Assembly (NCBI GenBank): GCA_965178655.1
Contig: OZ238266.1
Location: 1,578,295-1,642,294 of the forward strand
DNA: 64,000 bases
Direction of reading: 5' to 3'
Source: Flavobacteriaceae bacterium
Lineage (GTDB): Bacteria; Bacteroidota; Bacteroidia; Flavobacteriales; Flavobacteriaceae
Shown: positions 2,079 through 17,587 of the stretch, one piece after another
How the letters are laid out: every line of letters starts with the position of its first letter
Numbering within the stretch: the first letter of the stretch is position 1
Program-made: the position numbers and the translations under genes
The notes under the pieces: generated by a model
The model's database searches: none
Told to the model about the DNA's origin: nothing
The model's input: the letters and a program-made list of their open reading frames with translations, nothing else

Positions 2079-2085
2079 AAGAATT

Positions 2086-3255
2086 TTATTTGTGTGCAAT
2101 AATAGTTACTTCTTGTCCGTCCTTAATATTTCTTGCGCCTTCAACAATTATTTGCGCTCCAGGAGTAAGTCCTTTAAGGATTTCTACTAATCCGTCTTGT
2201 GTTTTTCCAGTGGTTACAAAAACTTTTTCGACATGATTATTTTTTGTGTCTGTTTTGGTTTTAATCTGATACAGATACTGTGTTCCTTGTGCGTTTTCAG
2301 AAAGTACGCTTTGAGGAATTAGCAACGCTGTTGCATTACTATAGTCGTTAACTTTTAGTTTAGCGGTAAGGTTGGGTTTAATTTCTTTTGCAGTATTTTT
2401 AATTGGAATTTCAATCTCAAAAGTTCTGTTTGCGGGGTTTATAAAAGCACTTACTTTGTCTATTTTTGCGTTTTGTGTTTTCCCTAAAACCGGAATACTA
2501 ACTAGCACTTCTTTTCCTTTTTTTAGATGAGCAATATGTTTTTCAGGAACAGTTGTTTTTACATACATATTGTTAAGGTTAAGTATGCGAATAATTTGCG
2601 ATTGCCCGGCAGCTACAACGCTACCTTTTTTGGCTATAACGGCGTCAATTGTTCCTGAAAAAGGCGCAACGATAGTTGTTTTTTGAAGTTGTTTTTTTAA
2701 TTGATTAACAGCTTTTTGTTGTGCGTTATAAGCCGATTTTACTTGTAGAAATTGCATTTCAGAACCAATTTTTTGTTCCCATAAACGCGTTTGCTTTTCA
2801 AAGGTGATTTTGGCCAAATCTGCTTGTATTTGTAAGGCGCTAAGTTGTTGTGCTAATCCGCCATCATCAATTTTGGCTAATAATTGTCCTTTTTTTACAT
2901 ATTGCCCTTCTGTAACATAAATGTCGTATATAATTCCGGAGTATTCAGGATAAAGCATTAATAATTGTTTTGTGGTTACATTTCCTTGCAATTCTATATA
3001 GTGCTTAAATGATTGTTCTTTTATGGCCAATGTTGTTACCAAAGGTAATTTTTTAGAACGGTCAAATTTGTCTATTGCAGCATTTAGCTGTGCTAATTGC
3101 GTGGTTGTTTTTTGTTGAGCAGCTAATATTTCGGCTTTTTTAGTTTGCATAGCCGAAAGGTCATTTTTGGCGATTATAGCTGAGATATCGGTTTCTTTTT
3201 CGGTACATGCTGTTAGCAAGATAGAAAGGGTAAAAAGGATGTATATATTTTTCAT
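2086..3255 (-). CDS. RND efflux membrane-fusion (periplasmic adaptor) lipoprotein
   Basis: 389 aa. Lipobox LSILLTAC, a Q/A-rich coiled-coil hairpin, then a beta-barrel region typical of the HlyD/MFP family. Gaps of 7 nt to the RND gene and 6 nt after the TolC gene. Confidence 0.9.
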   Translation of the reverse strand: MKNIYILFTLSILLTACTEKETDISAIIAKNDLSAMQTKKAEILAAQQKTTTQLAQLNAAIDKFDRSKKLPLVTTLAIKEQSFKHYIELQGNVTTKQLLMLYPEYSGIIYDIYVTEGQYVKKGQLLAKIDDGGLAQQLSALQIQADLAKITFEKQTRLWEQKIGSEMQFLQVKSAYNAQQKAVNQLKKQLQKTTIVAPFSGTIDAVIAKKGSVVAAGQSQIIRILNLNNMYVKTTVPEKHIAHLKKGKEVLVSIPVLGKTQNAKIDKVSAFINPANRTFEIEIPIKNTAKEIKPNLTAKLKVNDYSNATALLIPQSVLSENAQGTQYLYQIKTKTDTKNNHVEKVFVTTGKTQDGLVEILKGLTPGAQIIVEGARNIKDGQEVTIIAHK

Positions 3256-3261
3256 AGCAGA

Positions 3262-4590
3262 TTATTTAGTAGTGTTTGATAAGGTTTCTAATTGTGTTTT
3301 TTTAACAAGAATGTCAAGCATTGCTTTAAGGTATTCTTGTTGAGCAGCATAAAGTTGCATTTGTGCCTGGCGTAATTCAAAACTTGTTGCAAGGCCTTCG
3401 GTGTATTTAATGCTATTTTTTTGTTCAATACGTGTAGCAAGGGATAGGTTTTCTTTTGAAAGATGGAATTGTTCAATAGAAAAAGTATAATCACTATGTG
3501 CTGCGCTTAATTGAAAATGTAATTGCTCTTCTGTTTCGGTAAGGTTATTTTTAGATTTTTGAAATTCCATTTTAGCACGTTGTACGTTGGCCGCTTGTCT
3601 AAAAGAACTAAAAACAGGGATAGATAATTGTATGCCTGCTAATGATGCACCATACCACTTTTGAGCACTTGAGCTAAACTCAAAGTGTTGGTTATATGCG
3701 CTATATTCACCATTAATAAAAGCCGATAATGTTGGTAGTGCTTTGGCTTTTTCAAGTTTGAATAATAATTTCTTTAGCTGTGTGTCATTTGTAGCAATTT
3801 GGTAATCAATAGTTTTTGTAACGGTTACAGGGTTGTTATTGTGCAGTAAAGACTGTGTTGCTAAATCCTCTAAAGTGTTTTTTAAAACAAGAGTAGTCTT
3901 AATTGACTCCCCTAAAACAAGATTTAAAAATTTAGAGGCTATTTTTTGTAATCGCTGTGCGTTTTTATAGCCACTTTCAAGCTGTTTAAGTGTAATTTGT
4001 AATTGCTCTACTTGTTCTTCTTCAGCAAAACCATTATTAAAAACCGTTTGAGTTTCAGATAGGTTTTTTTGTAAGGCTTTAATGTTACTCTTATAAATAC
4101 GAATACTTTCTTGAGAGAGTAGTACATTTCCGTAGGCATTAATGGTTGCTTTTCGGATTTCTAAATCCGTTTTTACTTTGGCATTTTTTGAAACTTCTAA
4201 ATATACTTTTGCAGATTGTAAACCAACAATATATGAGCCATCAAAAAGCAGTTGTGTGGCAGTTGCAGAGGCACTCATGCTTTGTTTTTTTCCAAAGGCA
4301 AAAATTTCATCTACCCCATCATGATTCATGTCAGAAACATTAACTTTTTGTTTTAGCCAGTTTTGATAACTTAGTGTTGTAGATATTTGAGGGAGTCCCA
4401 TAGCGGTAGCCTCCCATTTTATTTTTTTGGCAATATTAATGTCGAGTGCAGCATTTTTTACAGTTCTATTGTTTTTTAGAGCGTAATTAATAGCCTCTTC
4501 TAGAGATAGCTCTAGTGTTTTTTCTTGAGAAAATAGTGTTGCTGAAAACAGTATTGCAATACAGCAGCTGAGGTAGGTTATTTTATTCAT
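3262..4590 (-). CDS. TolC-family outer membrane efflux protein
   Basis: 442 aa with a signal peptide and a long internally repeated helical region typical of outer membrane factors. Operon position; overlaps the TetR stop by 8 nt. Confidence 0.85.
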   Translation of the reverse strand: MNKITYLSCCIAILFSATLFSQEKTLELSLEEAINYALKNNRTVKNAALDINIAKKIKWEATAMGLPQISTTLSYQNWLKQKVNVSDMNHDGVDEIFAFGKKQSMSASATATQLLFDGSYIVGLQSAKVYLEVSKNAKVKTDLEIRKATINAYGNVLLSQESIRIYKSNIKALQKNLSETQTVFNNGFAEEEQVEQLQITLKQLESGYKNAQRLQKIASKFLNLVLGESIKTTLVLKNTLEDLATQSLLHNNNPVTVTKTIDYQIATNDTQLKKLLFKLEKAKALPTLSAFINGEYSAYNQHFEFSSSAQKWYGASLAGIQLSIPVFSSFRQAANVQRAKMEFQKSKNNLTETEEQLHFQLSAAHSDYTFSIEQFHLSKENLSLATRIEQKNSIKYTEGLATSFELRQAQMQLYAAQQEYLKAMLDILVKKTQLETLSNTTK

Positions 4591-5191
4591 AAGTATGTTT
4601 AGTGATAAGGGTGTTAATTATAGTAGCGCCTTTTTTGGTGCAAATACCACGCAAATGGTATTCAATATAGTATTCCATAAGTGTTTTAACAGTGTAATTT
4701 TCTTTAGGAAACAAGTCAGGGTTTTTAATAGCCATCATACCATTAAAGTATAGGCGTGCAATGAAATCTACATTAATGGTATCTCTATAAATTCCAAGGG
4801 CTATACCGCGATTTAAGTTCTTGGTAATGCAAGATTGTACTGTTTCAAATTGTTTGGCTTTTAAGTTTTTAGCTATTTCCGGATAATATTTTTGTAGCTG
4901 ATATTGCGGAGATGATTTTTCGTCTTTTAAATACGTCATAACCGTTTGCTTAATGCTATAAATCTCTTCAATAGGGTTGCTTTCTAAGGCACAAATATGA
5001 TCTATACTTGTAGAAATTTGCTCAAAAACATATAGCGATACGGCTTTTACTAAAGTTGTTTTAGTGGCATAATGTTGGTAAATGGTTTTTTTAGAAATCC
5101 CCATTTCTTGCGCAATATCATCCATGGTAACACTTTTAAAGCCAAGTGTAATGAATAAATCGGTTGCTTTTTTAAGAATAAGTTGTTGCAT
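4583..5191 (-). CDS. TetR/AcrR-family transcriptional repressor of the efflux operon
   Basis: N-terminal HTH KKATDLFITLGFKSVTMDDIAQEMGISKKTIYQHY. I prefer ATG 5191 (MQQLILKK) to the track's TTG at 5209. Confidence 0.85.
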   Translation of the reverse strand: MQQLILKKATDLFITLGFKSVTMDDIAQEMGISKKTIYQHYATKTTLVKAVSLYVFEQISTSIDHICALESNPIEEIYSIKQTVMTYLKDEKSSPQYQLQKYYPEIAKNLKAKQFETVQSCITKNLNRGIALGIYRDTINVDFIARLYFNGMMAIKNPDLFPKENYTVKTLMEYYIEYHLRGICTKKGATIINTLITKHTYE

Positions 5192-5210
5192 AATCGTTGC
5201 AAGGTACAAC

Positions 5211-5240
5211 AGGAAACTTTAAAAACAATAAAAGTTTCCT
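5211..5240. promoter_or_regulatory. Candidate TetR operator: perfect 10-bp inverted repeat AGGAAACTTT-N10-AAAGTTTCCT
   Basis: Read directly. Lies 20 nt upstream of the TetR ATG, in the divergent spacer to the polyprenyl synthase gene. A second 7-bp inverted repeat, TAGTTTTgctaAAAACTA, lies at about 5283..5300. Confidence 0.4.
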
Positions 5241-5309
5241 AAGAATATATTTAAGAAAGAGATGAATAACCTATAGAATGGTTTAGTTTTGCTAAAAACT
5301 AGTTTAAGA

Positions 5310-6287
5310 ATGTCAGATATTACTACTTACCGTTCAATATTTACTGCTTATTTACAAGATAAAGTTCAGACAAAATCACCTAAAAATCTGTATGAACCAA
5401 TGACGTATATTATGAAGTTAGGAGGGAAGCGTTTGCGCCCGGTATTAACTTTAATTACGGCAGATATATTTGATACAGATTATAAAAAAGCGTTAGATGC
5501 GGCATTGGCAATTGAGATTTTTCATAATTTTTCATTGGTTCATGATGATATTATGGATGATGCGCCGTTGCGTAGAGGCGCTTATACTGTTCATGAAAAA
5601 TGGAACTTAAACACCGGTATTTTATCGGGGGATGCTATGCTTATTACGGCATATCAATTATTTGAAAACTATGATGACGCTACATTTAGGGCATTGGCAA
5701 AAATATTTAGTAAAACGGCATTAGAGGTTTGTGAAGGGCAGCAATATGATGTTGACTTTGAAGAACGTAATGATGTTACTGAGGCAGAGTACTTAAAAAT
5801 GATTGAGTATAAAACAGCTGTTTTGGTAGGCGCGTCAATGAAAATGGGTGCAATTGTAGCAGGGGCCTCTAAAGATGATGCTCAAAAAATATACGATTTT
5901 GGACGTTTATTAGGGGTTGCGTTTCAGTTACAAGACGACTATTTAGACGCTTTTGGAGATCCAGAAACTTTCGGGAAACAAGTTGGGGGTGATATTATTG
6001 AAAACAAAAAAACATTCTTATATCTAAAGGCTTTAAAAGGCGCTTCTAGCGAGGATAAAGCAAAACTGATAGCGTTATTTTCAGAGAAAACAACCGTTGA
6101 TGTAGCTGAAAAAATTAAGTTTTCTAAAGCAATATTTAAGTCTAGTGGCGCTGCAAATCTAACTAAAGAAGCTATTAAGGCATATACATTGTCTGCTTTT
6201 AAGGTGCTAGACAATTTAACTATTTCTGAAGATAAAAAAGACTTGCTTAGGTCATTTGGCGAAAGCTTAATGTATAGAACAGTGTAA
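5310..6287 (+). CDS. Polyprenyl (geranylgeranyl/farnesyl) diphosphate synthase
   Basis: Two Asp-rich motifs, FSLVHDDIMDD and FQLQDDYLD. ATG at 5310; the track start at 5289 is TTG. Confidence 0.9.
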   Translation: MSDITTYRSIFTAYLQDKVQTKSPKNLYEPMTYIMKLGGKRLRPVLTLITADIFDTDYKKALDAALAIEIFHNFSLVHDDIMDDAPLRRGAYTVHEKWNLNTGILSGDAMLITAYQLFENYDDATFRALAKIFSKTALEVCEGQQYDVDFEERNDVTEAEYLKMIEYKTAVLVGASMKMGAIVAGASKDDAQKIYDFGRLLGVAFQLQDDYLDAFGDPETFGKQVGGDIIENKKTFLYLKALKGASSEDKAKLIALFSEKTTVDVAEKIKFSKAIFKSSGAANLTKEAIKAYTLSAFKVLDNLTISEDKKDLLRSFGESLMYRTV

Positions 6288-6643
6288 TGAGTATTCCGGT
6301 TAAAATGAGTGACCAACTACTAGAAGACGCGCAGGGTAAAGCGCTGTATAAAAAATTAATACAACAGTTAAACAAGGACTTTTTGCTTACAAGCATACCG
6401 GTGTCTTTTTCTGAAACAGTTTTGCCTTCTCAATTAAAAACAATGTTATTTGCTACAATTAAGGATCTGATTGATGAACAATTTGAAGTGTTTTTAAATC
6501 TGTTGTATCGCATTGACTTGCCAGAGGCTAAAATCAGAAATTTACCCAAAGAAAATCACCAAGAATATATTGCTATGGTTTCATATTTAATTCTAGAACG
6601 TGAATGGCAAAAAGTGGTTTTTAAAAGTAAGTTTTCTTTGTGA
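6287..6643 (+). CDS. Hypothetical protein (118 aa)
   Basis: The ORF start overlaps the upstream stop (TAATG-type coupling). No motif recognised. Confidence 0.55.
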   Translation: MSIPVKMSDQLLEDAQGKALYKKLIQQLNKDFLLTSIPVSFSETVLPSQLKTMLFATIKDLIDEQFEVFLNLLYRIDLPEAKIRNLPKENHQEYIAMVSYLILEREWQKVVFKSKFSL

Positions 6644-6685
6644 AAATACAGCCTAATTTGTTTATCATCCATTTTGAAATTGGTA

Positions 6686-8686
6686 TTACTGAAGCATATA
6701 GGTTAGGTTGATGTAGAAGTTTCGCCCTTTTCGTTTTAAATTATTCCAATCAGCATATGTTGTATAGTTTGTGTCAAGCACATTTTCAACACCATACCTT
6801 AAAATAGTTTTGTTGTTTTTTACACGAAAAGTATTCCCTAAATGTAAATTTATAATAGCATAGCTAGGTATTTCTTTTTCGCCAAAATTAATGCTGTAGG
6901 ATCCTTTTTTTTGATTCCCTGTAATTTGTACTGAAGCATGTATTTTAGGAGTGTGATATGTAATATCAGCGCTATAAAAGAAAGGACTAATTAAGGGTAG
7001 ATTTCCATAAGTATCTCCTGTTCCATGGGCATAACCAAAAGTTGCTTTTGCGTGTATTGCTTTTAAAAAACTATACTGGGTTTGTATACTCACATTGTAC
7101 ATGTTAGCATAGGGTAGTGCAATATATGTTTTTACGCCATTTGCCCCAATAGTCATAGCACTTAAGTCAGGGTTTATTTTTCCAATGGCATAGTTGTATA
7201 TTTTAAAATAAGAGGCTTCAAAACTAAGATTAAATTGTTCTTTTTTGTAGCTGCTACTAAGGTTAAATTCAAGTGACTGTTCTTTTTTTAGTTTTGGGTT
7301 TCCTATGTAATCATAGCCGTCAAAACTATTAAATAAATAAAAACCATAAGCTTCACTAACAGAGCTGGCTCTTTGTCCATATCCTATGCCAAAAGAATGT
7401 TTTAAATTATTGTTTTTATAGGTGTAATTGGAAGAAAAACTCCCAAGAAGGGTGTTTTTTTCAGGCGATAAGTTCGGGTAAAAAATTTGCAAACTCTCCA
7501 GGCCGACAGTGTTTTTTATCGCATTTTTCTGACTTCCTAAACGTGCTGAAAATTGAATTTTTTGTTTTTTATTTAAGGCAATAACATCTTTTAAATATAG
7601 TCCTACATAAGTTGTTCTTATATCTGGCCAAGTATACATAAACATGTCGTTTTCATCAGGATTATTAGGGTACATTGTCATTTCGGCTAAAGAACGATTG
7701 TAGTGTGCTGTAATATTGGCTGTTAGTTGGTGTTTTTTTAAGGTTTTATGTAATTTTGAATAAAGCCCATAGGTGTCACTATATCCAGGCATATCCATGC
7801 GTATAGGAACATCAGGCCGTTTGGAGTCGTCCATAATATGCGTTATAGTATTGGCGTATACTTTTGTTTCCCAGTGTTGAATAAACGCATTCTTGTCTGT
7901 AGCATTATAATGATGCGCTAACGAAGCTATTGTTGCCGTTGCTAATGATACATCCATAGGCAAGGAAGGGTATCCAATGTTGGTAGCGCGGTCATGAATT
8001 ATGGTGGTGTTTATGGCGTGTTTTTTTGATAATTGATGTCCAGATTGTAATGAAAAATTGTATTTTCTAAATTGGGAGTATAAAACCTCTTTATTATTAC
8101 CAGCATTGTAGTTATCGGTGTCTCGGAAAATACCATCAATAGTAATGTAATGCTTTTTACCCGAATAAGTTACATCAAGACCAGTAGTGGTATAATTTCC
8201 GTTGGTTTCATACCCGAGGTCAATGACACTTTTTAATCCAGTATTTGTATAATGTGCTGTAGGGAGTTTTAGGTCAATTGCACCACCAATACTATTTCCG
8301 TTTTCAGTACCTTCTTGCCCAGAATGAATACTGACTTCTTTTAGATTTGAAACTGCAACATATGAGGTGGTTGGGTCCATTTTGTCTGTACATGCTCCGT
8401 AAATTTGCATTCCATCAATGGTTAAAGAAATACGTTCTGTGCTCATGTTGTTTATTGTTGGTTCCCAAGCATAACTTCCGCGTTTAATCATAGTAACACG
8501 GCTAGATTTTTCCAAATAGTCATCAATAGTTATTAATGATTTGTGTTGGTTTTTTTGACTTGCTTTTTTATTTCCAATAACAATAATCTCACCGAGTTTA
8601 GTGCTTGTGCTATCTTCTTTTGCTTGCTGAGCAAACAATACTGTAGTGTATAGGATAGCAAAAAGAATGGTGTGTACTTTTTTCAT
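6686..8686 (-). CDS. TonB-dependent outer membrane receptor (possible NosA/OprC-like copper receptor)
   Basis: Signal peptide, a plug-like N-terminus (GEIIVIGNKK.., RVTMIKRGS..) and the C-terminal beta-barrel ending ..GRNFYINLTYMLQ typical of TBDTs. ATG at 8686 (MKKVHTILF) is preferred to TTG at 8698. Confidence 0.85.
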   Translation of the reverse strand: MKKVHTILFAILYTTVLFAQQAKEDSTSTKLGEIIVIGNKKASQKNQHKSLITIDDYLEKSSRVTMIKRGSYAWEPTINNMSTERISLTIDGMQIYGACTDKMDPTTSYVAVSNLKEVSIHSGQEGTENGNSIGGAIDLKLPTAHYTNTGLKSVIDLGYETNGNYTTTGLDVTYSGKKHYITIDGIFRDTDNYNAGNNKEVLYSQFRKYNFSLQSGHQLSKKHAINTTIIHDRATNIGYPSLPMDVSLATATIASLAHHYNATDKNAFIQHWETKVYANTITHIMDDSKRPDVPIRMDMPGYSDTYGLYSKLHKTLKKHQLTANITAHYNRSLAEMTMYPNNPDENDMFMYTWPDIRTTYVGLYLKDVIALNKKQKIQFSARLGSQKNAIKNTVGLESLQIFYPNLSPEKNTLLGSFSSNYTYKNNNLKHSFGIGYGQRASSVSEAYGFYLFNSFDGYDYIGNPKLKKEQSLEFNLSSSYKKEQFNLSFEASYFKIYNYAIGKINPDLSAMTIGANGVKTYIALPYANMYNVSIQTQYSFLKAIHAKATFGYAHGTGDTYGNLPLISPFFYSADITYHTPKIHASVQITGNQKKGSYSINFGEKEIPSYAIINLHLGNTFRVKNNKTILRYGVENVLDTNYTTYADWNNLKRKGRNFYINLTYMLQ

Positions 8687-8701
8687 AATGAAAGGCAATT
8701 A

Positions 8702-8742
8702 TTTTTCAGCGCCTTTACGTTCTTGTAAAGGCGCTGAAAAAA
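8702..8742 (-). terminator. Strong GC-containing hairpin flanked by A/T runs (bidirectional terminator-like)
   Basis: TTTTTCAGCGCCTTTAC-gttcttg-GTAAAGGCGCTGAAAAA, about 17-bp arms. Lies between the lipoprotein stop (8744) and the TBDT start (8686). Confidence 0.6.
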
Positions 8743-8743
8743 G

Positions 8744-9586
8744 TTAAAATTCTAAGTTGAGGTTTAAGCTACTTTCAATGTTTTCGGCTGTAACATCTTC
8801 TCCTTTAAGAAGTGTATTGTTGGTATTAAACAGTTTCAAGTTGAGCACCCAGTATCCGGTCATGGTTAATGATAGATCACCATGGTAAAGTGTGTCGTTA
8901 ATAGAATAACTTAGATCTGTGTTGTTTGGTGAGCTATGATTTCCCATAGATGGCATACGTGGGTCTAGTGAAATACTATAATCACTTACCGGAGGAAAAG
9001 ACATCATGTTTTCCATTTTGTAAAGTCCTGCTGTTAATGAATTTACCCCTATTGTTGGGTTCTCAGGTGTAATTAGGGCAATAATATACTTAACATCATC
9101 ACTTCCCATAAATGTGGTTACATTTTTAGAAGCGTTTTGGTGAACAATAATTGTATCTTCAGCAGTATATGTAATATCGTTAATAGTATAGGTAAACGTA
9201 ATAGACCAGCCAGAGCCATCAGTTTCTGTCATTTGAAAAACCAATGTTCCGTGGTATAGGCTATTGGTGCCTTCTTTTCTGACAATTGTTGATTTTGGAC
9301 AAGAATGCGACATTGTTGTCATTTGCATAACAGGTATCCAATTGATGTTTGCGTCGTTAATGTAGCTTTCATCGCTATTGTTTTTTACTCGTATGGTAAT
9401 ATTGTTATGACCGGTATAAAAATTACCTGAAGAAGTGTAGAGTTCTAAGGTGTGTTCATCGGTAATAAACTCTTGTGCTTTTTGTAAGTTTTCCGTTTCA
9501 TTAATACTGAATACAGCATCATCATCAGTATCACATGAGATGAATAAGCTAGATATTAGGACTGGTATTATATATAAAAATTTCAT
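8744..9586 (-). CDS. Lipoprotein with two Met/His-rich motif modules (putative metal/copper binding)
   Basis: Lipobox SLFISCD. Two repeated modules: PVMQMTTMSHSCP...LYHGTLVFQMTETDGSGW and DPRMPSMGNHSSP...LYHGDLSLTMTGYW. Confidence 0.7.
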   Translation of the reverse strand: MKFLYIIPVLISSLFISCDTDDDAVFSINETENLQKAQEFITDEHTLELYTSSGNFYTGHNNITIRVKNNSDESYINDANINWIPVMQMTTMSHSCPKSTIVRKEGTNSLYHGTLVFQMTETDGSGWSITFTYTINDITYTAEDTIIVHQNASKNVTTFMGSDDVKYIIALITPENPTIGVNSLTAGLYKMENMMSFPPVSDYSISLDPRMPSMGNHSSPNNTDLSYSINDTLYHGDLSLTMTGYWVLNLKLFNTNNTLLKGEDVTAENIESSLNLNLEF

Positions 9587-9692
9587 TTGTTTTTATTTAA
9601 ATGTTAGAGGTAAGGAACGCTATTTTAAGCCATAGCAATCCTAGCTAAAAATGTTTTAGCGTGTTATTAGTTAATTTTTAATACTGGTAAAA

Positions 9693-10082
9693 TTAACTTG
9701 TTATAGGAGGAGGAATATCAAGCTCATAGTGCACATTAATTACATGATATGCGCTATGATCAATAATGAAGTTTTGTAGATATTGTTGCTTAGGAACAAC
9801 AACATCATTATTAGGTTGTATGTAAGCACATCTAAGTGTTTCAATAGAGATCTGCTGTAGGGGTATTTCTTGCTCTGCGGCAGAAGAAATGTTTAGCTTT
9901 TTTTTAAGTTGACATTTTCCGTTACATCCATTTTGAGCTTCTTTCTGTATACATAAGGTTTTTGCAATTTGTTCTTGGTTTACCACAAAATGTACTACAG
10001 TAACAATATTGCTAATGGCGTGTAAGCAAAGTATTAAGCTTAAGACAATGGCCTTAACGATATGTTTTTTAGCAGCGATCAT
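9693..10082 (-). CDS. Small membrane-anchored Cys-containing hypothetical protein
   Basis: 129 aa. N-terminal TM helix (AIVLSLILCLHAISNIV), then LCIQKEAQNGCNGKCQLKKKL. Located between nosY and the lipoprotein/TBDT genes. Confidence 0.55.
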   Translation of the reverse strand: MIAAKKHIVKAIVLSLILCLHAISNIVTVVHFVVNQEQIAKTLCIQKEAQNGCNGKCQLKKKLNISSAAEQEIPLQQISIETLRCAYIQPNNDVVVPKQQYLQNFIIDHSAYHVINVHYELDIPPPITS

Positions 10083-10134
10083 TTACACAAAAATACAGCC
10101 TAATTTAGGCTTTGAATATGATTTTAGTCAGTGT

Positions 10135-10917
10135 TTAAAAATCTTTTTTACGGGCTTTTTTTAAGATGATTGCTACAGGAGAAATAACCCATAGACACAA
10201 GATGCCTATAGACGAAAACAGCCCAATGTTTGTTCCGAAAAATTGTTGAAAAACTGCTCCAGTATATCCCAGTAGGGCAGAAATGTCAAGTTTTAGTAAA
10301 ATTAAAATTCGGGATAAATCAATAGGATTAAAAACGGTAGCTACTAAGGCAAAATTATCTAAAGGATATTCGCTAAAATAAATTAGTGAAATTAAAAACG
10401 CACCATCGTAAAGTACGGCCAGTGTCAACCATAGTACAATAGCATACCCAAATCCTTTAATTTTATTTTCGGTTGATAGCGAAATAGTATAGGCTAAGGC
10501 AACAAAAATAAAGTTCAAGAAAACACCCACGACCAATAGTAAAATAAAATTTGTAATTGTAGTGGAAACCAATAGACCGTATGCTAAAAATGGAATTCCT
10601 AATCCTAAGGCTAAGCTTAAACTTAGTGAAATGCTTAAGCCTAGGTATTGTCCAATAAAAATAGTATTTCTTTTTAAAGGTTGTGCTAAAAGCAGTTCGG
10701 TAAATTCTCTGGAGTTGTAATAATACATTACGCCAAAAATAGTAGCGATTAGTGGGGTAAGTATAATAATAATATTCATTAATGTAATTACTGCTTTATC
10801 AATATCATTATTTAAAAATAATAATACAAACCCGAGTAATAGGTAGAATGAAAAATAAACATAACTCCATCTACTTCTCATTAAGTCAAAAAAACTGTAT
10901 GTTAATATTTTAAGCAT
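10135..10917 (-). CDS. nosY: NosY, ABC-2-type permease for N2O reductase maturation
   Basis: 260 aa, about 6 TM helices, overlaps nosF by 8 nt. Assigned by position in the nosLDFY order. Confidence 0.8.
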   Translation of the reverse strand: MLKILTYSFFDLMRSRWSYVYFSFYLLLGFVLLFLNNDIDKAVITLMNIIIILTPLIATIFGVMYYYNSREFTELLLAQPLKRNTIFIGQYLGLSISLSLSLALGLGIPFLAYGLLVSTTITNFILLLVVGVFLNFIFVALAYTISLSTENKIKGFGYAIVLWLTLAVLYDGAFLISLIYFSEYPLDNFALVATVFNPIDLSRILILLKLDISALLGYTGAVFQQFFGTNIGLFSSIGILCLWVISPVAIILKKARKKDF

Positions 10918-11617
10918 ATTGTTTAGATATTAAGTGGGCTATTGCCTGTTCTAAATTAGGGTGATTTGTTTGTGTTTTCAGTGCGTTAACACTTCCTTTA
11001 AAGTAAATAGTTCCGTCTAATAAAAACACAATTTCATCAGCCATTTCATCTACAAAACTCATGATGTGTGTTGTAATTAAGATGGTTTTTCCTTTTGTTT
11101 TTTCAAGTTGTATTAGTTCTTTTAGATGAATAAGAGCAATAGGATCTAAGCCTGTTGTTGGTTCGTCAAGAATGATAAGTTCACTATCAAACATGAAGAC
11201 AAGAACTAAATTTACTTTTTGCTTGGTGCCTCCGGAAAGGGTTCCTAGTTTTTTATTTAAAAATGGTGTTAAGCCAAAAAGGTTAATAAGGTGTTGCTCA
11301 TTTGCTGTTTTTGAGCGAAGGTTTTTAACCATGTTAATGAGCTCAATAACAGATAGGTTTTCTGGGAAATTTGCAATTTGTGGAAGGTAGTTTAGATTGT
11401 CGCGATACGCCCATTTTTTTAAAACAGAAGTGCCATCTAAAAGAATATCTCCTTTGTTTGGGATAACCATTCCAAGTAAACATTTTATTAGGGTTGTTTT
11501 TCCAGAGCCGTTAGGGCCCAAAATAGCAAAAACACCGCCTTTTGAAATAGTTAAATCCACACCTTGTAGCACGGATAGTTTTCCAAATTTCTTATGTAAA
11601 TCTCTAATTTCTATCAT
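10910..11617 (-). CDS. nosF: NosF, ABC transporter ATPase
   Basis: Walker A GPNGSGKTT, signature LSGGTKQK, Walker B LIILDEPTTGLD. Overlaps nosD by 14 nt. Confidence 0.85.
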   Translation of the reverse strand: MIEIRDLHKKFGKLSVLQGVDLTISKGGVFAILGPNGSGKTTLIKCLLGMVIPNKGDILLDGTSVLKKWAYRDNLNYLPQIANFPENLSVIELINMVKNLRSKTANEQHLINLFGLTPFLNKKLGTLSGGTKQKVNLVLVFMFDSELIILDEPTTGLDPIALIHLKELIQLEKTKGKTILITTHIMSFVDEMADEIVFLLDGTIYFKGSVNALKTQTNHPNLEQAIAHLISKQYA

Positions 11618-12842
11618 CTATTTTTTTCATTATGGGTTTGCTGTCTACTAAGTTTGTAGGGGTAAATACAGGCGATACTTTTTCGGAAAAATTGATAACA
11701 TCAATAAATAAACTACGCAAAAGCACTAATGATTCTGGTGTTTTACTAGTGATGTATGAAAAAAGTTTTACGGGCCTGTGTGGTACATCTCCAATACCAT
11801 CTTTGTTTAAGTCATAGCCAGTGTATTCGCTCCAGTGGTTTGCTTCAAACTTGTTGTCATTAAGTTTGCTGTTGTATGCTAAATCAAAGGCATTATGCAT
11901 AAAATTATTGTATTCAAACACATTTTTGTAGCAGCCACCATTAAACTTAACACCCCAACCATTTCGGATAAAATGATTATTGGTATAATTAACTCTGGAG
12001 CAGCCTTCAATATTAATGGCTATTGTATTTTGAGTAAAATAATTATTTTCAATTACGGCATCATTAATTTCTTTTAATAGGAGCCCATAAGAAGCGGTTC
12101 CCCAGTTAAAACGGAATGTATTATGATGCATTTTAAGATGTTTTGAGAACATAATAGCTACTCCTGCACCGTTGTTATTAAAGTCGTTGTGGTGGTATTC
12201 ATTGTGATTTGAAAACATAAAATGTAACCCATAGCGTACATTTTCGGTACTGGTGTTATTCGTTACAAGGCTGTTTTTTACAAACTCAAAGTAAATACCA
12301 TCTCTTAATCGTTTAACGCGATTATTGTTTACTCGCATGTGTGAGCTATGCCATATATGAATACCGTTACCAGAGTTGGCTTCGGTAACCGCCTGACTTG
12401 ATATGGTATTGTTTTCAATATGTCCGTAATTTGACTTTTCAATTAATATACCAAAGAAAACATCTTTTAATATGTTATTTTTAATACTAAAATAGTTGCT
12501 TTTAGAGACTAAAATAGCAGCAAAATCTTTAACATAACTTTGGCCTACATTTATAATAGTAAACCCTTCAATTGAAAAATGATCAGAACTTATTTTAAAA
12601 ATAGTTTCCTGATTTCCTCCGTCTACAATAGGGTTTCCTTCGCCAATTAAATGCAATGATTTATTGATAAGGATAATAGAATGTTCTTTGTAGGTGCCTT
12701 TTTTTACAAGAATACTATCTCCGTTTTTAGCAAGGTTTACTGCGTCGTTAATGGTTGTTACAGTACAGTTGCCACAAACAGTTATGGTGTTTGCTTTTGT
12801 GTAAAAGGATACAAGAAATAGGAATAAAAATCTCCAGCGCAT
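11604..12842 (-). CDS. nosD: NosD, periplasmic parallel beta-helix copper-processing protein
   Basis: 412 aa with a signal peptide and many N-x-(I/F)-x-x-N beta-helix repeats (IENNTIS, VNNNRV, VTNNTS, HHNDFNNNG...). Position between nosL and nosF. Confidence 0.85.
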   Translation of the reverse strand: MRWRFLFLFLVSFYTKANTITVCGNCTVTTINDAVNLAKNGDSILVKKGTYKEHSIILINKSLHLIGEGNPIVDGGNQETIFKISSDHFSIEGFTIINVGQSYVKDFAAILVSKSNYFSIKNNILKDVFFGILIEKSNYGHIENNTISSQAVTEANSGNGIHIWHSSHMRVNNNRVKRLRDGIYFEFVKNSLVTNNTSTENVRYGLHFMFSNHNEYHHNDFNNNGAGVAIMFSKHLKMHHNTFRFNWGTASYGLLLKEINDAVIENNYFTQNTIAINIEGCSRVNYTNNHFIRNGWGVKFNGGCYKNVFEYNNFMHNAFDLAYNSKLNDNKFEANHWSEYTGYDLNKDGIGDVPHRPVKLFSYITSKTPESLVLLRSLFIDVINFSEKVSPVFTPTNLVDSKPIMKKIDDRN

Positions 12843-12848
12843 ATGTGG

Positions 12849-13286
12849 TTAATTTGAAAATTTTACTTTAAGTGTTTCCCAATTGTATAACGTTCCGCCG
12901 TGGGTTTCTTTAAGATTTTTAGCTGCGGTTTTGTTACTTACTGCGGAGAGGTATGCTCCCATTGGACTCTTAATTTCTTTACTAATAATATATGCTGCAT
13001 TGCGAGCATCGATTAGCGTGCCAGGGTTTTGATAATCGGCAACTAATATATGTGCTAGGGTAGGTTCGTTCTGCTCGTCTGTAACGGTGTTAGCTAAACA
13101 TTCAATGGCATCAAAAACAAATACTTTCCCTTTTTTGGTAACATATTGTGCTGAGTGTGTCTTGTCCACTACAGTCATTTTACAATAATGACAATTGTCT
13201 TTTCCGTAGGCAATTTTTTTCGGAGTAGGTGTGCATGCACTAAGTATAATGGCACACGTGATTATGGTGTATAGTTGCTTTTTCAT
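12849..13286 (-). CDS. nosL: NosL copper chaperone lipoprotein
   Basis: 145 aa, lipobox ILSAC, CHYCKM motif near the N-terminus, typical NosL size and position. Confidence 0.85.
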   Translation of the reverse strand: MKKQLYTIITCAIILSACTPTPKKIAYGKDNCHYCKMTVVDKTHSAQYVTKKGKVFVFDAIECLANTVTDEQNEPTLAHILVADYQNPGTLIDARNAAYIISKEIKSPMGAYLSAVSNKTAAKNLKETHGGTLYNWETLKVKFSN

Positions 13287-13289
13287 AAA

Positions 13290-13883
13290 TTATGATGTTT
13301 GTTTAGAAGATTTTCTTCCCATTAAAAAGGCAATAAAACTTAAAAGCATTCCTGTAAATAAAAAGTATGCCCCAATCATAGGGTAAGAGTGTGCTCTAAA
13401 GTTAAGAATGTCTTTTGAGCCTAGTAATGGTGGTTGAAAGCCCATTACAGACCCGTCTGGGTTTTTAAAGTTCATGATTGCTTTTGGATCTAAATCGTGT
13501 CCATAGTCATATTCCCATAAATAGAAATCATACATTCCTGCAAGACCTAATAAGGCCACTATAATGACCCATGCTAAAAATAATTTATGTTTTCCAATGA
13601 ATCCTAAAACAATACCTAAGACTGACATAAAACCAATGACAATAGGAAATATTTTAAATTCAGGAATGGTTTCAGGAATGTATTTCATTCCAACATAATG
13701 ATTCATGAGATTGATGTTTTTAATATCAAATTCATGGGTATCTTTAAACTTGTTAATATAAATGTCCATTCCTAATGGAGTAGGGTATTGTGGGGCTTCA
13801 AGAGTGATGTTCCATAACGGAAAGATAAATAATCCTAAAAGCAGGGAGGACCCTATAATCATTATAATGTTTGCTTTTTTCAT
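13290..13883 (-). CDS. Four-TM membrane protein in the nosB position of clade II nos clusters
   Basis: 197 aa with four hydrophobic helices. Lies between nosZ and nosL. Assigned by position and topology only. Confidence 0.6.
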   Translation of the reverse strand: MKKANIIMIIGSSLLLGLFIFPLWNITLEAPQYPTPLGMDIYINKFKDTHEFDIKNINLMNHYVGMKYIPETIPEFKIFPIVIGFMSVLGIVLGFIGKHKLFLAWVIIVALLGLAGMYDFYLWEYDYGHDLDPKAIMNFKNPDGSVMGFQPPLLGSKDILNFRAHSYPMIGAYFLFTGMLLSFIAFLMGRKSSKQTS

Positions 13884-13940
13884 AGAATAAAAATGTATTG
13901 TGTTTTGTGAGTATAAAAATACCCCTTTTATAGGGGTAAT

Positions 13941-13960
13941 AATGTGACTTTTGTCACATT
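13941..13960. promoter_or_regulatory. Perfect CRP/FNR-family-type palindrome AATGTGAC-TTTT-GTCACATT (TGTGA-N6-TCACA)
   Basis: Read directly. Centre lies about 67 nt upstream of the nosB-like ATG (13883) and downstream of the nosZ terminator hairpin. Confidence 0.45.
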
Positions 13961-13977
13961 GGAGCTATTATTTTAAT

Positions 13978-14010
13978 AAAAAAAGCGAATAGATTAACTA
14001 TTCGCTTTTT
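13978..14010 (-). terminator. Rho-independent terminator after nosZ
   Basis: Stem AGCGAATAG/CTATTCGCT (13984..13992 and 13998..14006), 5-nt loop, flanked by A7 and T5 runs, so it can act in either direction. Confidence 0.65.
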
Positions 14011-14037
14011 GAGTATAATTTAAAAAAAAGTATCGAA

Positions 14038-16017
14038 TTAAAAGTCTTCCTCTCCAGGGACTTCGTTATCTACTGTGAACTTTAAGGGAACGTCAGAGCC
14101 TTTTGCTGAAACACGAACATAGCCTTGCATTTCTTGGTGTAATGCAGAGCAGAAATCGGTACAATAAAATGGCCAAACCCCCACTTGTTTAGGTTCCCAG
14201 GTAAATGTCGTTGTTCTACCAGGCATAATTAAAAGTTCCGAAGTATTAGCTCCAATCATTGAAATGCCATGTGGCACATCATAATCTTGTTCTAGATTTG
14301 TTACGTGAAAGAAAACTTTGTCACCAACTTTAACACCTTCAATATTATCAGGAGAGAAGTGAGAACGAATCATCGACATGTAAATGTGTACTTCGTTACC
14401 TTTTCTAACAACAGTAGTTTCTGCTTCACTCTTAACAGCGTAAGGGTGTTTGTTGTCTTCTAAGCGGAATATCTTTTTAGAATTTGCAGCAACTTTTTCA
14501 GCAGCAATACCTGCAGCGTAGTGTGGTTCTCCGATGGTAGGGAAATCCAATAGCAATTCCATTTTGTCTCCAGAAATATCAAATAATTGCGCTGACTGAC
14601 AAACTTCAGGTCCTGTTGGTAAGTAACGGTCTTTTGTAATTTTATTCATGGCAACTAAGTATTTGTCGTCAGGAGTTCTAGAGTTTCCTCCAGGAATCAT
14701 AAGGTGTCCTACAGAGTAGTATACTGGGTGACGGTCAATTACTTTAAGGTCTTTAATATTCCATTTTACAACCTCTGACGATATAAAGAATGTGGTATAT
14801 CCATTACCTCTAGTATCAAATTCAGTATGTAAAGGTCCTAAACCAGGTTGCTCTAAAGTACCGTAGTTAATTGCATCAAAGTTTAAAATTGGAATTCCAT
14901 AACTTTCTCCATCAAACGCTTCGTTAGCAATTGCTTCTTCCATTTTAGTAAATGAGTGAATGGTCATTGCAGCAGCTAATTTACCATTACCAATAATGTA
15001 TTCTCCTGTAGGGTCTACGTCACAACCATGTGGTGATTTTGGAGTAGGTAAAAAGAAAACAGCTCCAGGAACATCTTCAGGGTTAACAACAAGTACTTCT
15101 TTTTTCATTACTGTTGTGGCCATGTGTGTTGCATCATCCCAAGTATTGTGGGCATAGTTTGCAGGTTCTTTTTTACCCCCACCATTAGCCACATATTCTT
15201 CAATTTTTTTCCAGTTAATTGCGGCAATAAAATCTTTATCATTTTGAGAAGAGTTTACCTCCATTAGGGTGTTTGCTTCCTCTGTGTTATATGTAGAGAA
15301 GAAGAACCATCCGTGTGATTTCCCTCTACCAGGGTGTGATAAATCAAAGTTAAATCCTGGCATTCTTAATTGAAACTCAATATTCATGTGTCCGTGGTCA
15401 GGATCAATTTTTAAGAATGATAAGGTCCCTTTAAAGTTTCCTTTGTACTCATCAATAGGCATATCACGTTGTGGAACAGGAACAGCAAAACGAGTTCCGG
15501 CAACAACATATTCAGAGTTTTCGGTAACAAATGATGAAGAGTGGTTTCCGGCAGAATTAGGGATTTCAATAATCTCTTCTGTTTCAAAGGTTTCCAGACT
15601 TATACGTGCAATACGTGGGGTGTTGTTTTCGTTAATGAAAACCCATCGCCCATCAACTTCTCCATTGGTTTGTGAAATATCTGGGTGGTGTGAATCTCCC
15701 CAGGGTACAAGACCGTGTGAGGTCATTAACATTGGTTTTGTTTCCTCACTATATCCGTATCCTTTTTCAGGGTCTTGTGAGAATACTGGAATAACTCTAA
15801 ACAATCGTCCAGACGGTAATCCATACACGGATAATTGTCCGCTAAAACCTCCAGAAATAAAGGCATAATGAGAATCGTGCTCTCCAGGAGCTACATACAC
15901 TTTTTCTGCAGCATTACCGGTAAGTATTCCGTTGTTGTTACTTTTTTCAGCAGGCCCTCCGCAACTCACTAAAGAAGCGATTGCAATGGCTGCAATTGAT
16001 TTGATAATTAGTTTCAT
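14038..16017 (-). CDS. nosZ: Nitrous-oxide reductase NosZ, clade II (Sec/lipoprotein-type) form
   Basis: 659 aa. N-terminus MKLIIKSIAAIAIASLVSCGG has no twin-arginine motif. His cluster WGDSHHPD. C-terminal CuA motif FYCTDFCSALHQEMQGY. nosL/D/F/Y lie downstream. Confidence 0.95.
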   Translation of the reverse strand: MKLIIKSIAAIAIASLVSCGGPAEKSNNNGILTGNAAEKVYVAPGEHDSHYAFISGGFSGQLSVYGLPSGRLFRVIPVFSQDPEKGYGYSEETKPMLMTSHGLVPWGDSHHPDISQTNGEVDGRWVFINENNTPRIARISLETFETEEIIEIPNSAGNHSSSFVTENSEYVVAGTRFAVPVPQRDMPIDEYKGNFKGTLSFLKIDPDHGHMNIEFQLRMPGFNFDLSHPGRGKSHGWFFFSTYNTEEANTLMEVNSSQNDKDFIAAINWKKIEEYVANGGGKKEPANYAHNTWDDATHMATTVMKKEVLVVNPEDVPGAVFFLPTPKSPHGCDVDPTGEYIIGNGKLAAAMTIHSFTKMEEAIANEAFDGESYGIPILNFDAINYGTLEQPGLGPLHTEFDTRGNGYTTFFISSEVVKWNIKDLKVIDRHPVYYSVGHLMIPGGNSRTPDDKYLVAMNKITKDRYLPTGPEVCQSAQLFDISGDKMELLLDFPTIGEPHYAAGIAAEKVAANSKKIFRLEDNKHPYAVKSEAETTVVRKGNEVHIYMSMIRSHFSPDNIEGVKVGDKVFFHVTNLEQDYDVPHGISMIGANTSELLIMPGRTTTFTWEPKQVGVWPFYCTDFCSALHQEMQGYVRVSAKGSDVPLKFTVDNEVPGEEDF

Positions 16018-16022
16018 AGTAT

Positions 16023-16529
16023 TTAGTTTAATTGTCTTAAAAATTCTAATATGGCACGTGCCTCATCAGTAGTTAAATTTTGGTTTGCCATAGGAGCACT
16101 ATATTCTTTTAGTAGTGCTTTAGCAGTAGGGTTTTTTGCCAACATCTCTTCAGGATTTAGCATCATGTTCATAATCCATTCAGGAGAGCGTCGTTTAGTA
16201 ACACCTTTCATCTCAGGTCCGATATATCGTTTTTTAGTTTTATGACAAGCGGTACATTTAGATCTATACACTTCTTTTCCTTTTTCAACTAAAGCAGCAT
16301 CAATAGTCTCTAAGGTCAATGTTTTAATAGGGCCAATTCCTTTGTCGTTTAGGTCAATTGTAATACTGGCTTTTGCTTCAGTTTTTTTAGTTTCTTTTTT
16401 TTCTGCTGGTTTTCTGGCAGCACGTTCCTTTCGAGCGGTAGGAGTTGCTTCTTCTTTTTTAGCATCGCCTCCACAGCTGGAAAACAATAGTGCAGCTAAG
16501 GCAAATAGTGCTAGGTTTTTTAAGTTCAT
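16023..16529 (-). CDS. Monoheme c-type cytochrome lipoprotein (likely electron donor to NosZ)
   Basis: Lipobox LFSSCGG, a K/E/A-rich linker, a single CTACH heme motif. 5 nt upstream of nosZ. Confidence 0.85.
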   Translation of the reverse strand: MNLKNLALFALAALLFSSCGGDAKKEEATPTARKERAARKPAEKKETKKTEAKASITIDLNDKGIGPIKTLTLETIDAALVEKGKEVYRSKCTACHKTKKRYIGPEMKGVTKRRSPEWIMNMMLNPEEMLAKNPTAKALLKEYSAPMANQNLTTDEARAILEFLRQLN

Positions 16530-16544
16530 ACGTTTTGGTTTTAA

Positions 16545-17114
16545 TTAATTAGTGGGTACTAGAACATCTGAAATTACATGAATCCATCCGTTACTAACCT
16601 TTACAGTTTTTAGAATTTTAGTTCCTCCAACATATAAGCCGTCTTCTTTTTTAACAACATCTAGGTAGTTTCCAGAGGCCATATATAACTTTCGGCCTTT
16701 TTTAGCTTCTTTCCTTAGTTGTTTTTCTGGGTAATTTGCAGGTGCAACATGGTTTACAAGAACATAGCCAAGTTTGGCTTTGTTTTCAGGTTTTAAAAGA
16801 CTTTCTACAGTTCCTTCAGGAAGTTTGTCGAATGCTGCATTTACAGGAGCAAAAATTGTTAAAGGCCCGGCATTTACTACGGCATCTTCAACACCAGCAG
16901 CCTTAATGGCAACGACTAAAGTTTTAAAATCATCAAGTGATTTTGCTACCTGTAGCGCATTAGCATCTGATACACCATCAGCGACAGCTGCTTGTCCTTT
17001 ATGCACTGTTTTTGTCACAGTTTCAGTTGTAGACGGTTCTGTTTTTGTAGTTTTATTGCAAGCGGTAAATGACATTACAATAGCGGTTAATAATAGAATA
17101 AATTTTGTGTTCAT
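16545..17114 (-). CDS. Fasciclin (FAS1) domain lipoprotein
   Basis: Lipobox SFTACN. FAS1 motifs TIFAPVNAAFDKLP and YVLVNHV. First gene of the nos transcription unit. Confidence 0.85.
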   Translation of the reverse strand: MNTKFILLLTAIVMSFTACNKTTKTEPSTTETVTKTVHKGQAAVADGVSDANALQVAKSLDDFKTLVVAIKAAGVEDAVVNAGPLTIFAPVNAAFDKLPEGTVESLLKPENKAKLGYVLVNHVAPANYPEKQLRKEAKKGRKLYMASGNYLDVVKKEDGLYVGGTKILKTVKVSNGWIHVISDVLVPTN

Positions 17115-17587
17115 GATCAGTTATATTTTAATTATGAACAAAATTAAGGCAAGTATTTAGGTTTTTTCATGATAAAAATCATAAAAAAGACAAACTAGTC
17201 TTTTATTGTAAAAAGAGAGCGAACAAAACTAATAAGGATAAATTAGCATAAAAAAAACACGCTAAATTATATAAAAAATAATGCGTTGTTTTTCTGAATT
17301 GTTGTATTTTTGACCCGATTTTATTAGGGAGGTTCTAAAAAAATAATTTAACTTTTTTAGTTAACCGAACTAATCCCGCTTTTTTTAGCGGGATATTGAT
17401 TTAAGATATCGATTTTAATCGGTCGATTTCTTATAATAAATTAAGGGTTCTGCCTTGAGGTTTGACCCCGTTATTTGCAGGCGTAATAAACTGCACGAAT
17501 ACATAAAAAAACACAACAGTTTGTACATGTATAACATTGATAAACAAAGGTTTTTTTTGTAAATTAAAAAGAGACAAGCGAAACATA

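Follow-up and report, generated by a model that had tools for sequence, protein, structure and literature searches.

The window analysed here, a 64,000-nt stretch of contig OZ238266.1, comes from a marine-type Flavobacteriaceae bacterium whose genome is a single contig of 2.13 Mb. It contains a nitrous oxide (N2O) reductase (nos) gene cluster followed by three genes of a putative copper-import module: a small cysteine-containing protein, a lipoprotein and a TonB-dependent receptor (TBDT). The genes of interest lie on the minus strand (Table 1). A preliminary description, made from the sequence alone, had reported three same-strand genes directly after nosY, and all three open reading frames (ORFs) were verified in that position, directly 3′ of nosY (10135–10917); the trio of genes is real, intact and conserved. 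The products also agreed with that description. The first, a small membrane-anchored Cys protein, has an N-terminal hydrophobic helix and a C44-x8-C53-x3-C57 motif; the second, a Met/His-rich lipoprotein, has a lipobox (Cys18) and Met/His motifs at residues 85–97 and 208–220; the third, a TBDT, matched the Plug domain PF07715 of Pfam. The upstream genes were likewise confirmed as a complete clade II (Sec-type) nos cluster with nosL, nosD, nosF and nosY: NosZ scored 925 bits on TIGR04246 (cut-off 625) and NosD 422 bits on TIGR04247, and NosL matched PF05573.

Table 1. Features of the nos cluster, the three-gene module and their control regions in the window
Feature	Position	Strand	Basis or remark
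Clade II nos cluster (fas1, cytochrome c, nosZ, nosB-like, nosL, nosD, nosF, nosY)	10135..17114	-	family models
Box before fas1	17170-17181	-	23 nt to -7-like element
fas1	16545-17114	-	
Cytochrome c	16023-16529	-	
nosZ	14038-16017	-	TIGR04246, 925 bits
Box before nosB-like gene	13945-13956	-	23 nt to -7-like element
nosB-position membrane protein	13290-13883	-	
nosY	10135-10917	-	
FNR/CRP-type box TGAY-N4-RTCA (TGACTAAAATCA, minus strand)	10119..10130	-	centre ~42 nt upstream of small-gene ATG
17-bp exact direct repeat, copy 2	10090..10106		overlaps weak terminator-like hairpin after nosY and part of -7 element
Bacteroidota -7 element TATTTTTG (TAnnTTTG)	10088..10095	-	23 nt after box, 5 nt before ATG
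Small Cys protein, 129 aa	9693..10082	-	ORF and conservation
Spacer between small gene and lipoprotein gene, 106 nt	9587..9692	-	folding, -16.9 kcal/mol
Lipoprotein, 280 aa	8744..9586	-	PF13115, conservation, structure model
Stem-loop, perfect 17 bp, between lipoprotein stop and receptor start	8702..8741	-	-26.5 kcal/mol
TBDT, 670 aa from TTG; probable ATG at 8686	6686..8698	-	PF07715, TIGR01778
17-bp exact direct repeat, copy 1	6643..6659	not applicable	

The best NCBIfam model of the receptor was TonB-copper TIGR01778, aligned over residues 60–648, and the second-best models were haem/haemoglobin receptors. A sequence search of the Protein Data Bank (PDB) gave six matches, all of them OprC, which extended over the plug and the beginning of the barrel. 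The copper ligands of OprC are Cys143, Met147, His323 and Met325 (CxxxM-HxM; PMC8610252). GACTDKMD of the receptor aligned to GACPNRMD of OprC and THIMDD to DHIMDN, placing C103, M107, H287 and M289 at the four ligand positions. These four residues were invariant in 81 close homologues and in 20 distant ones, down to ~26% identity and in other families and classes. A genome search identified this receptor as the sole OprC-type receptor encoded in the 2.13 Mb. Judged from its sequence, the protein belongs, as a distant member, to the TonB-dependent copper transporters of OprC/NosA type.

The preliminary description had held this supply route to be built from parts different from those of Pseudomonas. 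That part of it fell, because the receptor is itself of OprC/NosA type by its aligned ligands and its best model, and the type had already been noted in Bizionia argentinensis, where the sole OprC-like receptor was reported bioinformatically to carry the CxxxM-HxM motif (PMC11213822). That paper does not discuss a nos link or partner genes; judged by the proximity of its locus tag to nosL, the B. argentinensis receptor appears to be the equivalent gene. Like OprC of Pseudomonas aeruginosa and NosA of P. stutzeri, the window receptor is a plug-and-barrel TBDT with alignable CxxxM-HxM ligands, and it is preceded by a small putative leader gene with a Cys/Pro motif. The historical tie of NosA to copper-loaded N2O reductase compares with the nos linkage seen here. 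Unlike OprC and NosA, to which it is ~20% identical (104 against 472 bits on TIGR01778), the receptor has a Bacteroidota host, is always paired with a lipoprotein, has no PepSY_TM gene and is physically linked to clade II nos clusters.

More than 1600 homologues of the lipoprotein were found, almost all annotated as hypothetical. Residues 167–249 matched the YtkA-like family PF13115 with 29.3 bits, barely above the gathering score of 25.9, and the same label is precomputed on many homologues. A structure model made from 26 diverse sequences (predicted local distance difference test 89.4, predicted template-modelling score 0.82) contained two beta-sandwich domains (~33–150 and 154–280). The two halves were an internal duplication (BLASTP E 1e-4) whose Met/His motifs align with each other, M87/M89/M92/H94/C96 in the first domain and M211/M214/H217/M242 in the second. 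The candidate ligands C96, M211, M214, H217 and M242 were invariant among homologues down to 30% identity; M87, M89, M92 and H94 were invariant in 81 close (>50% identity) Flavobacteriaceae homologues and substituted in an MbnP-type subgroup. In an exhaustive structural search at domain level, residues 33–148 matched the Helicobacter pylori copper protein CrdA (Z 13.1, root-mean-square deviation 2.5 Å, 105/108 residues), followed by HftA, Tp34 and FtrA-P19 at Z 9–10 (FtrA-P19 on the C-terminal domain) and PmoD and CopC at Z 7–8. Foldseek with the whole lipoprotein against the PDB gave generic tandem-Ig matches only (template-modelling score ≤ 0.32), and a PDB sequence search gave one chance-level match, a phage tail tube protein (E 0.034).

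The mature lipoprotein begins, at lipid Cys18, with C-D-T-D-D-D, and at least two acidic residues occurred at +2 to +7 after the lipid Cys in 103 of 106 homologues. Known export signals of Bacteroidota lipoproteins are SDDDD, SDDFE and K-(D/E)2 (PMC5080379), of which the first two match the N-terminal pattern C-S/T-x-D-D-D. Because of this match the lipoprotein is probably a surface-exposed copper-capture protein. It would then resemble the SusD-SusC, BtuG-BtuB and XusB-XusA pairs, in which the genes are adjacent, the export signal is acidic and the ligand is expected to be captured and handed over to the barrel, although the folds are unrelated, the ligand here would be an ionic metal and the receptor is not SusC-like. 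CrdA, CopC and the P19/Tp34/HftA proteins are its best structural matches and have methionine-rich copper sites, with no detectable sequence similarity; they are soluble periplasmic proteins of resistance or iron uptake, whereas the lipoprotein pairs with a receptor.

Alternatively, the lipoprotein could face the periplasm in the manner of CtaK or PCuAC, taking copper from the receptor and loading the CuA (or CuZ) centre of NosZ. CtaK (YtkA), a Bacillus subtilis lipoprotein, is implicated in CuA-centre assembly (PMC13344008), and this extracytoplasmic copper supply is comparable to the role proposed here. CtaK and the YtkA domain of YcnJ share the PF13115 beta-sandwich with the lipoprotein, a CuA centre is present in NosZ, and CrdA and CopC are periplasmic (PMC9182242). 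Unlike CtaK, however, the lipoprotein has two tandem domains, a Gram-negative host, a surface-export signal, a TBDT partner and only the narrow Pfam margin given above. The near-universal acidic residues resemble the Bacteroidota export signals (PMC5080379), the gene adjoins that of the receptor in every order and context, as in surface lipoprotein-TBDT pairs, and the lipoprotein is also found without nosZ. A periplasmic orientation is thus possible but doubtful.

In the small protein, residues 2–34 were modelled as a confident helix and the remainder was unstructured; the hydrophobic N-terminus was common to all homologues. Relatives were recovered by synteny and motif, as a word-indexed homologue search yielded four proteins only. 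The sole invariant residues in 26 sequences from several families were C44, C53, G55, K56, C57, L59, P124 and P125. In 72 of 79 close loci exactly three residues separated PPP from the stop, with a Cys-to-PPP spacing of 65–70 residues. Distant members had 63–70 residues between the Cys motif and PP, and the intervening sequence (~66 residues in the window) was unconserved. PP was always 1–7, mostly 3, residues before the stop, including members from another class; there the ORF in the same position had a different Cys/His cluster, kept the membrane helix and ended in RPP plus 2–3 residues. All arrangements having the small gene had the order small-lipoprotein-TBDT or small-TBDT-lipoprotein. 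The gene was missing where the lipoprotein-receptor pair was embedded in a nos operon (L112), and its absence there supports a regulatory role. By these conserved characters the small protein looks like a regulatory leader rather than a transport component.

Such leaders are known from Proteobacteria. In Bordetella pertussis a TBDT operon that is repressed by copper begins with the ORF of CruR (Bp2923), and oprC of P. aeruginosa has a cruR homologue in front of it (PMC9426467). CutF of Rhodobacter capsulatus, with a Sec signal, a CxxxC motif and a C-terminal PPP, detects copper in the periplasm while it is being exported co-translationally (PMC9973294; 10.1101/2025.02.05.636593). The small protein shares with CruR and CutF an N-terminal export or membrane signal, a putative Cys metal motif (though of another pattern), Pro-Pro ~3 residues before the stop, a conserved motif spacing in an otherwise unconserved and unstructured body, and the position of first cistron of a copper-transport operon, followed by a long structured spacer. 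There is about an even chance, or a slightly better one, that it works in the same way, as a copper-sensing stalling leader.

There are several differences from these leaders, of which the Cys motif and the failure of the family models count against the assignment. The Cys motif is C-x8-C-x-G-K-C-x-L (C-x8/9-C-x-G-K-C in homologues, or the Cys/His cluster) and not CXXC or CxxxC, the spacing is 63–70 residues against 45, the C-terminus is TPPP, QPP or RPP against RAPP, and the mRNA of the small gene is apparently leaderless. The small protein had no Pfam match at E up to 10 and no NCBIfam match; PF11162 (DUF2946), the family model of CruR and CutF, matched nothing genome-wide and, with E allowed to reach 10, none of 17 members of the small-protein family, and a genome search with DUF6769 (PF20558) did not detect the small protein. 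Look-alikes named DUF2946/CzcI in a protein atlas scored only 0.90–0.91 against it. If it is a leader, its family is unrecognised by existing models.

The small protein might instead be a stable periplasmic copper chaperone anchored in the inner membrane, or a partner of the receptor, rather than a regulatory nascent peptide. A membrane helix with a three-Cys motif would be in line with a tethered Cu(I) site, and no family model ties the protein to CruR or CutF. The stretch between Cys and PP, however, is conserved in length alone and predicted to be unstructured, PP stays near the stop even in the other class with its quite different Cys/His motif, and the gene invariably comes first after the promoter and is missing when the pair sits inside the nos operon. 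We regard a chaperone as a tentative alternative, on the unlikely side.

An FNR/CRP-type box and a Bacteroidota -7 element precede the small gene. The box was present in 63 of 79 related loci, with its centre 40–44 nt before the small-gene ATG. TAnnTTTG ended 3–7 nt before this ATG at 61 sites among the 79 loci but occurred in the spacer between the small and lipoprotein genes in only 1/79, indicating that the trio has its own promoter and that the small ORF is the first cistron, which is probably leaderless or near-leaderless. The distance from box to -7 element was 23 nt in 52 of 53 loci. Seven palindromic TGAY-N4-RTCA boxes were found in the window, three of them in promoter position with 23 nt to a -7-like element TAnnTTT(G/A). 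Loci of relatives typically had two copies of the composite site, one heading the nos cluster and one in front of the small gene; a stand-alone trio (L016) retained the box. This class II CRP/FNR geometry (box near -41.5), shared with the nos promoters, argues for co-regulation with nos, and the three promoters suggest a single CRP/FNR-type regulon of three transcription units. Elsewhere, the genome encodes two CRP-family (HTH_Crp_2) proteins. As a candidate for the regulator orf208 was ruled out; it is a TetR regulator heading an efflux operon of the resistance-nodulation-division (RND) type.

Both spacers within the trio are predicted to be structured. The spacer between the small and lipoprotein genes, moderately structured in the window and with a median length of 106 nt and a median folding z-score of -2 (78 loci), is a candidate attenuation region. 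The spacer that separates the lipoprotein gene from the receptor gene was filled by a strong hairpin, unrelated in sequence, in 73 of 78 related loci (median z-score -5.2). As the hairpin is kept despite unrelated sequence, its structure is under selection, and setting the ratio of lipoprotein to receptor would be its likeliest role.

The neighbourhoods of 80 Flavobacteriaceae loci, found via the lipoprotein, were annotated by ORF calling and Pfam. The receptor gene was adjacent in 80/80 and the small gene present in 76–79/80, and nosY was directly upstream in 70/80; the association of the trio is far above chance. Co-occurrence with nosZ, a check proposed in the preliminary description, was found at two levels. 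In a sample of one genome for each of 301 Flavobacteriaceae genera (lipoprotein in 60, nosZ in 157), nosZ was present in 50 of 60 lipoprotein-positive against 107 of 241 lipoprotein-negative genera, and lay within 20 kb of the lipoprotein gene in 30 of the 50 genomes having both. Across the phylum (401 genomes) the figures were 37/52 against 98/349, with 14/37 within 15 kb. Shared ancestry inflates these co-occurrence counts, which are not phylogenetically independent, and this weakens them as support for a nos link; the variety of gene arrangements is the stronger argument.

The pair stood beside nos genes in at least five independent arrangements: nosY-small-lipoprotein-receptor, as in the window and, at 30% identity, in another family (L106); small-receptor-lipoprotein-cytochrome c-fas1-nosZ; small-lipoprotein-receptor-cytochrome c-nosZ; the pair divergent from cytochrome c-nosZ; and the pair inserted between nosL and nosD. 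The last was seen in another class (L112 of G453, 3269–12882), without a small gene and with fas1 at the far end of the nos operon. In some relatives an extra gene lay between nosY and the small gene (L017, 8546–9379; L001, 8990–9451; L063, 7170–9448), encoding either a 277-aa tandem universal stress protein or a ~150-aa protein; one relative also had a 605-aa protein.

Other copper genes were also found beside the pair. Directly upstream of the trio in Snuella (L039, 6134–9149; L079) were genes for a NirK-like copper nitrite reductase (a copper oxidase with a fused cytochrome c), for a NirV-like protein of FGE-sulfatase type and for Sco with a heavy-metal-binding domain. MbnP and a MauG/MbnH-like di-haem peroxidase were encoded directly downstream or upstream of the pair in several Bacteroidota genomes. 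This clustering resembles the copper-acquisition genes MbnT-MbnP-MbnH of methanotrophs, but methanobactin genes are lacking and the window itself has no mbnPH. In one such group (L093, 5230–12800; also L094, L096, L098 and L119) the module stood alone, followed by MbnP and the peroxidase and preceded by one or two DUF4625 proteins; some of these stand-alone modules carried two tandem leader-type small ORFs.

The attachment of a copper module to nos, as first proposed, is therefore upheld by nosY upstream in 70/80 loci, by the five or more arrangements and by the common promoter design, but the word "dedicated" is not: nosZ was not found in 10/60 (family) and 15/52 (phylum) carriers, and the module also occurs beside nirK-nirV-sco and mbnP-mbnH. 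The wider claim of an outer-membrane copper supply route at a clade II nos cluster found computational support in the OprC ligands, the CrdA fold match, the nos linkage and the promoter design.

The module, 3.46 kb in the window, is bracketed there by an exact 17-bp direct repeat. Prompted by this repeat, the trio was considered as cargo of a mobile element, which was rejected, with no recombinase or transposase and an unremarkable composition. In three genomes (L007, L095 and L097) the trio was kept at the same chromosomal site after loss of nos. A congener (L102 of G081, 9818–10987; compare window 6643–10106) has the same sucA-nos-polyprenyl synthase locus but lacks the trio. This pattern of presence and absence indicates that the module is accessory, gained and lost, and not an obligatory nos component. 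Beyond the module in the window, a 118-aa protein (6287–6643) without a family match is translationally coupled to the polyprenyl synthase (5289–6287) and holds the same position in 19 related loci. Downstream of the synthase, at 3–5209, lie a TetR regulator and RND efflux genes (outer-membrane factor, membrane-fusion protein and AcrB-type pump), an order kept in many relatives that appears unrelated to the copper module.

Taken together, the trio is quite likely one transcription unit that imports copper to the periplasm, where NosZ (elsewhere NirK or other cuproproteins) would get its metal. From the observed gene structure, conservation, ligand conservation, fold similarity, synteny and promoter architecture we infer a mechanism of five steps. 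First, a CRP/FNR-family activator would turn on the operon together with the nos genes, from the box near -41.5, with the transcript starting at or next to the first ATG. Second, the leader would be targeted to the membrane and its three-Cys motif would sense copper while the ribosome pauses at the C-terminal PPP, fixing the level at which the downstream message is produced or translated, as shown for CruR and CutF in Proteobacteria. Third, the lipoprotein would be flipped to the cell surface and bind Cu(I) at its two Met/His(/Cys) sites. Fourth, copper would be handed to the CxxxM-HxM site of the OprC-type receptor and moved into the periplasm with TonB energy. Fifth, the intercistronic hairpin would tune the ratio of lipoprotein to receptor.

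Some observations weigh against this interpretation. Roughly two thirds of the nosZ-bearing Flavobacteriaceae genera (107/157) had no module. In the congener mentioned above, whose NosZ is 90% identical, the module was absent and nosY abutted the homologue of orf118; NosZ maturation therefore does not need the module. The receptor scored 104.1 bits on TIGR01778 and did not reach the curated equivalog cut-off of 472.45, making it a distant relative or subfamily and not an equivalog. The surface exposure of the lipoprotein is read from a sequence motif alone. The role of NosA in NosZ metallation is itself disputed in P. stutzeri (PMC8610252).

The same genes could also serve general copper housekeeping, supplying every cuproenzyme (cytochrome oxidases, NirK and others) without a special relation to NosZ; their position next to nos would then be historical. 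The carriers in which nosZ was not found, the retention of the module after nos loss, the single OprC-type receptor in a genome of 2.1 Mb and the occurrence of OprC in non-denitrifiers (PMC8610252) are all in keeping with such a role. It is nonetheless improbable, as it leaves unexplained the five or more arrangements beside nos, including the insertion between nosL and nosD, a module promoter that copies the nos promoters, and an adjacency to nosZ far above chance (30/50 and 14/37). Import of another substrate (haem, an iron chelate or zinc), or sequestration or detoxification of copper or silver, is very improbable: the second-best receptor models, the metal range of P19/Tp34-type proteins, which bind iron as well as copper, and the role of CrdA as a resistance determinant point that way, but the invariant Cys/Met/His/Met site aligns to the OprC copper site, all informative neighbourhoods encode a copper enzyme or chaperone (nos, nirK, Sco, MbnPH), and no efflux or oxidase partner is present.

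With copper import to the periplasm as the preferred function, the module is, by analogy, the Bacteroidota counterpart of the proteobacterial cruR-oprC unit. New with respect to that unit are the undescribed two-domain lipoprotein, the unrecognised putative leader family and the recurrent physical and promoter coupling to clade II nos. The lipoprotein, as a dedicated two-domain Met/His partner of a receptor, has not been described previously and would be the first metal-ion-capturing surface partner of such a TBDT. If the leader reading is true, copper-sensing stalling leaders also occur, in the form of the small gene, in a phylum in which the Pfam model does not detect them. In a literature search, from which most subscription journals were out of reach, no paper connected Bacteroidota nos clusters with a TBDT or a YtkA-like lipoprotein.

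To our knowledge, NosZ is the only biological N2O sink. It is limited by copper scarcity, and the clade II reducers of Bacteroidota rank among the foremost candidates for mitigating N2O. Since the work on Pseudomonas NosA it has been a matter of dispute whether NosZ is fed by a copper importer in the outer membrane; the repeated and varied physical linkage of OprC-type receptors to nos and the common promoter design provide independent comparative evidence, and the link can be tested in culturable marine flavobacteria. Close relatives with the same nos cluster, with and without the module, offer a natural experiment. We suggest, tentatively and as a possibility only, that N2O reducers of clade II across the Bacteroidota possess a copper-import operon complete in itself, made up of a nascent-peptide copper sensor, a surface copper-capturing lipoprotein and an OprC-type receptor. 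It would be turned on at low O2 or by N-oxides and throttled by copper, and its presence would set whether active NosZ can be formed at environmental, nanomolar copper. If so, the operon may decide whether N2O is removed when copper is scarce, and its presence, which varies even between members of a genus, would allow N2O-sink capacity to be predicted from the genome.

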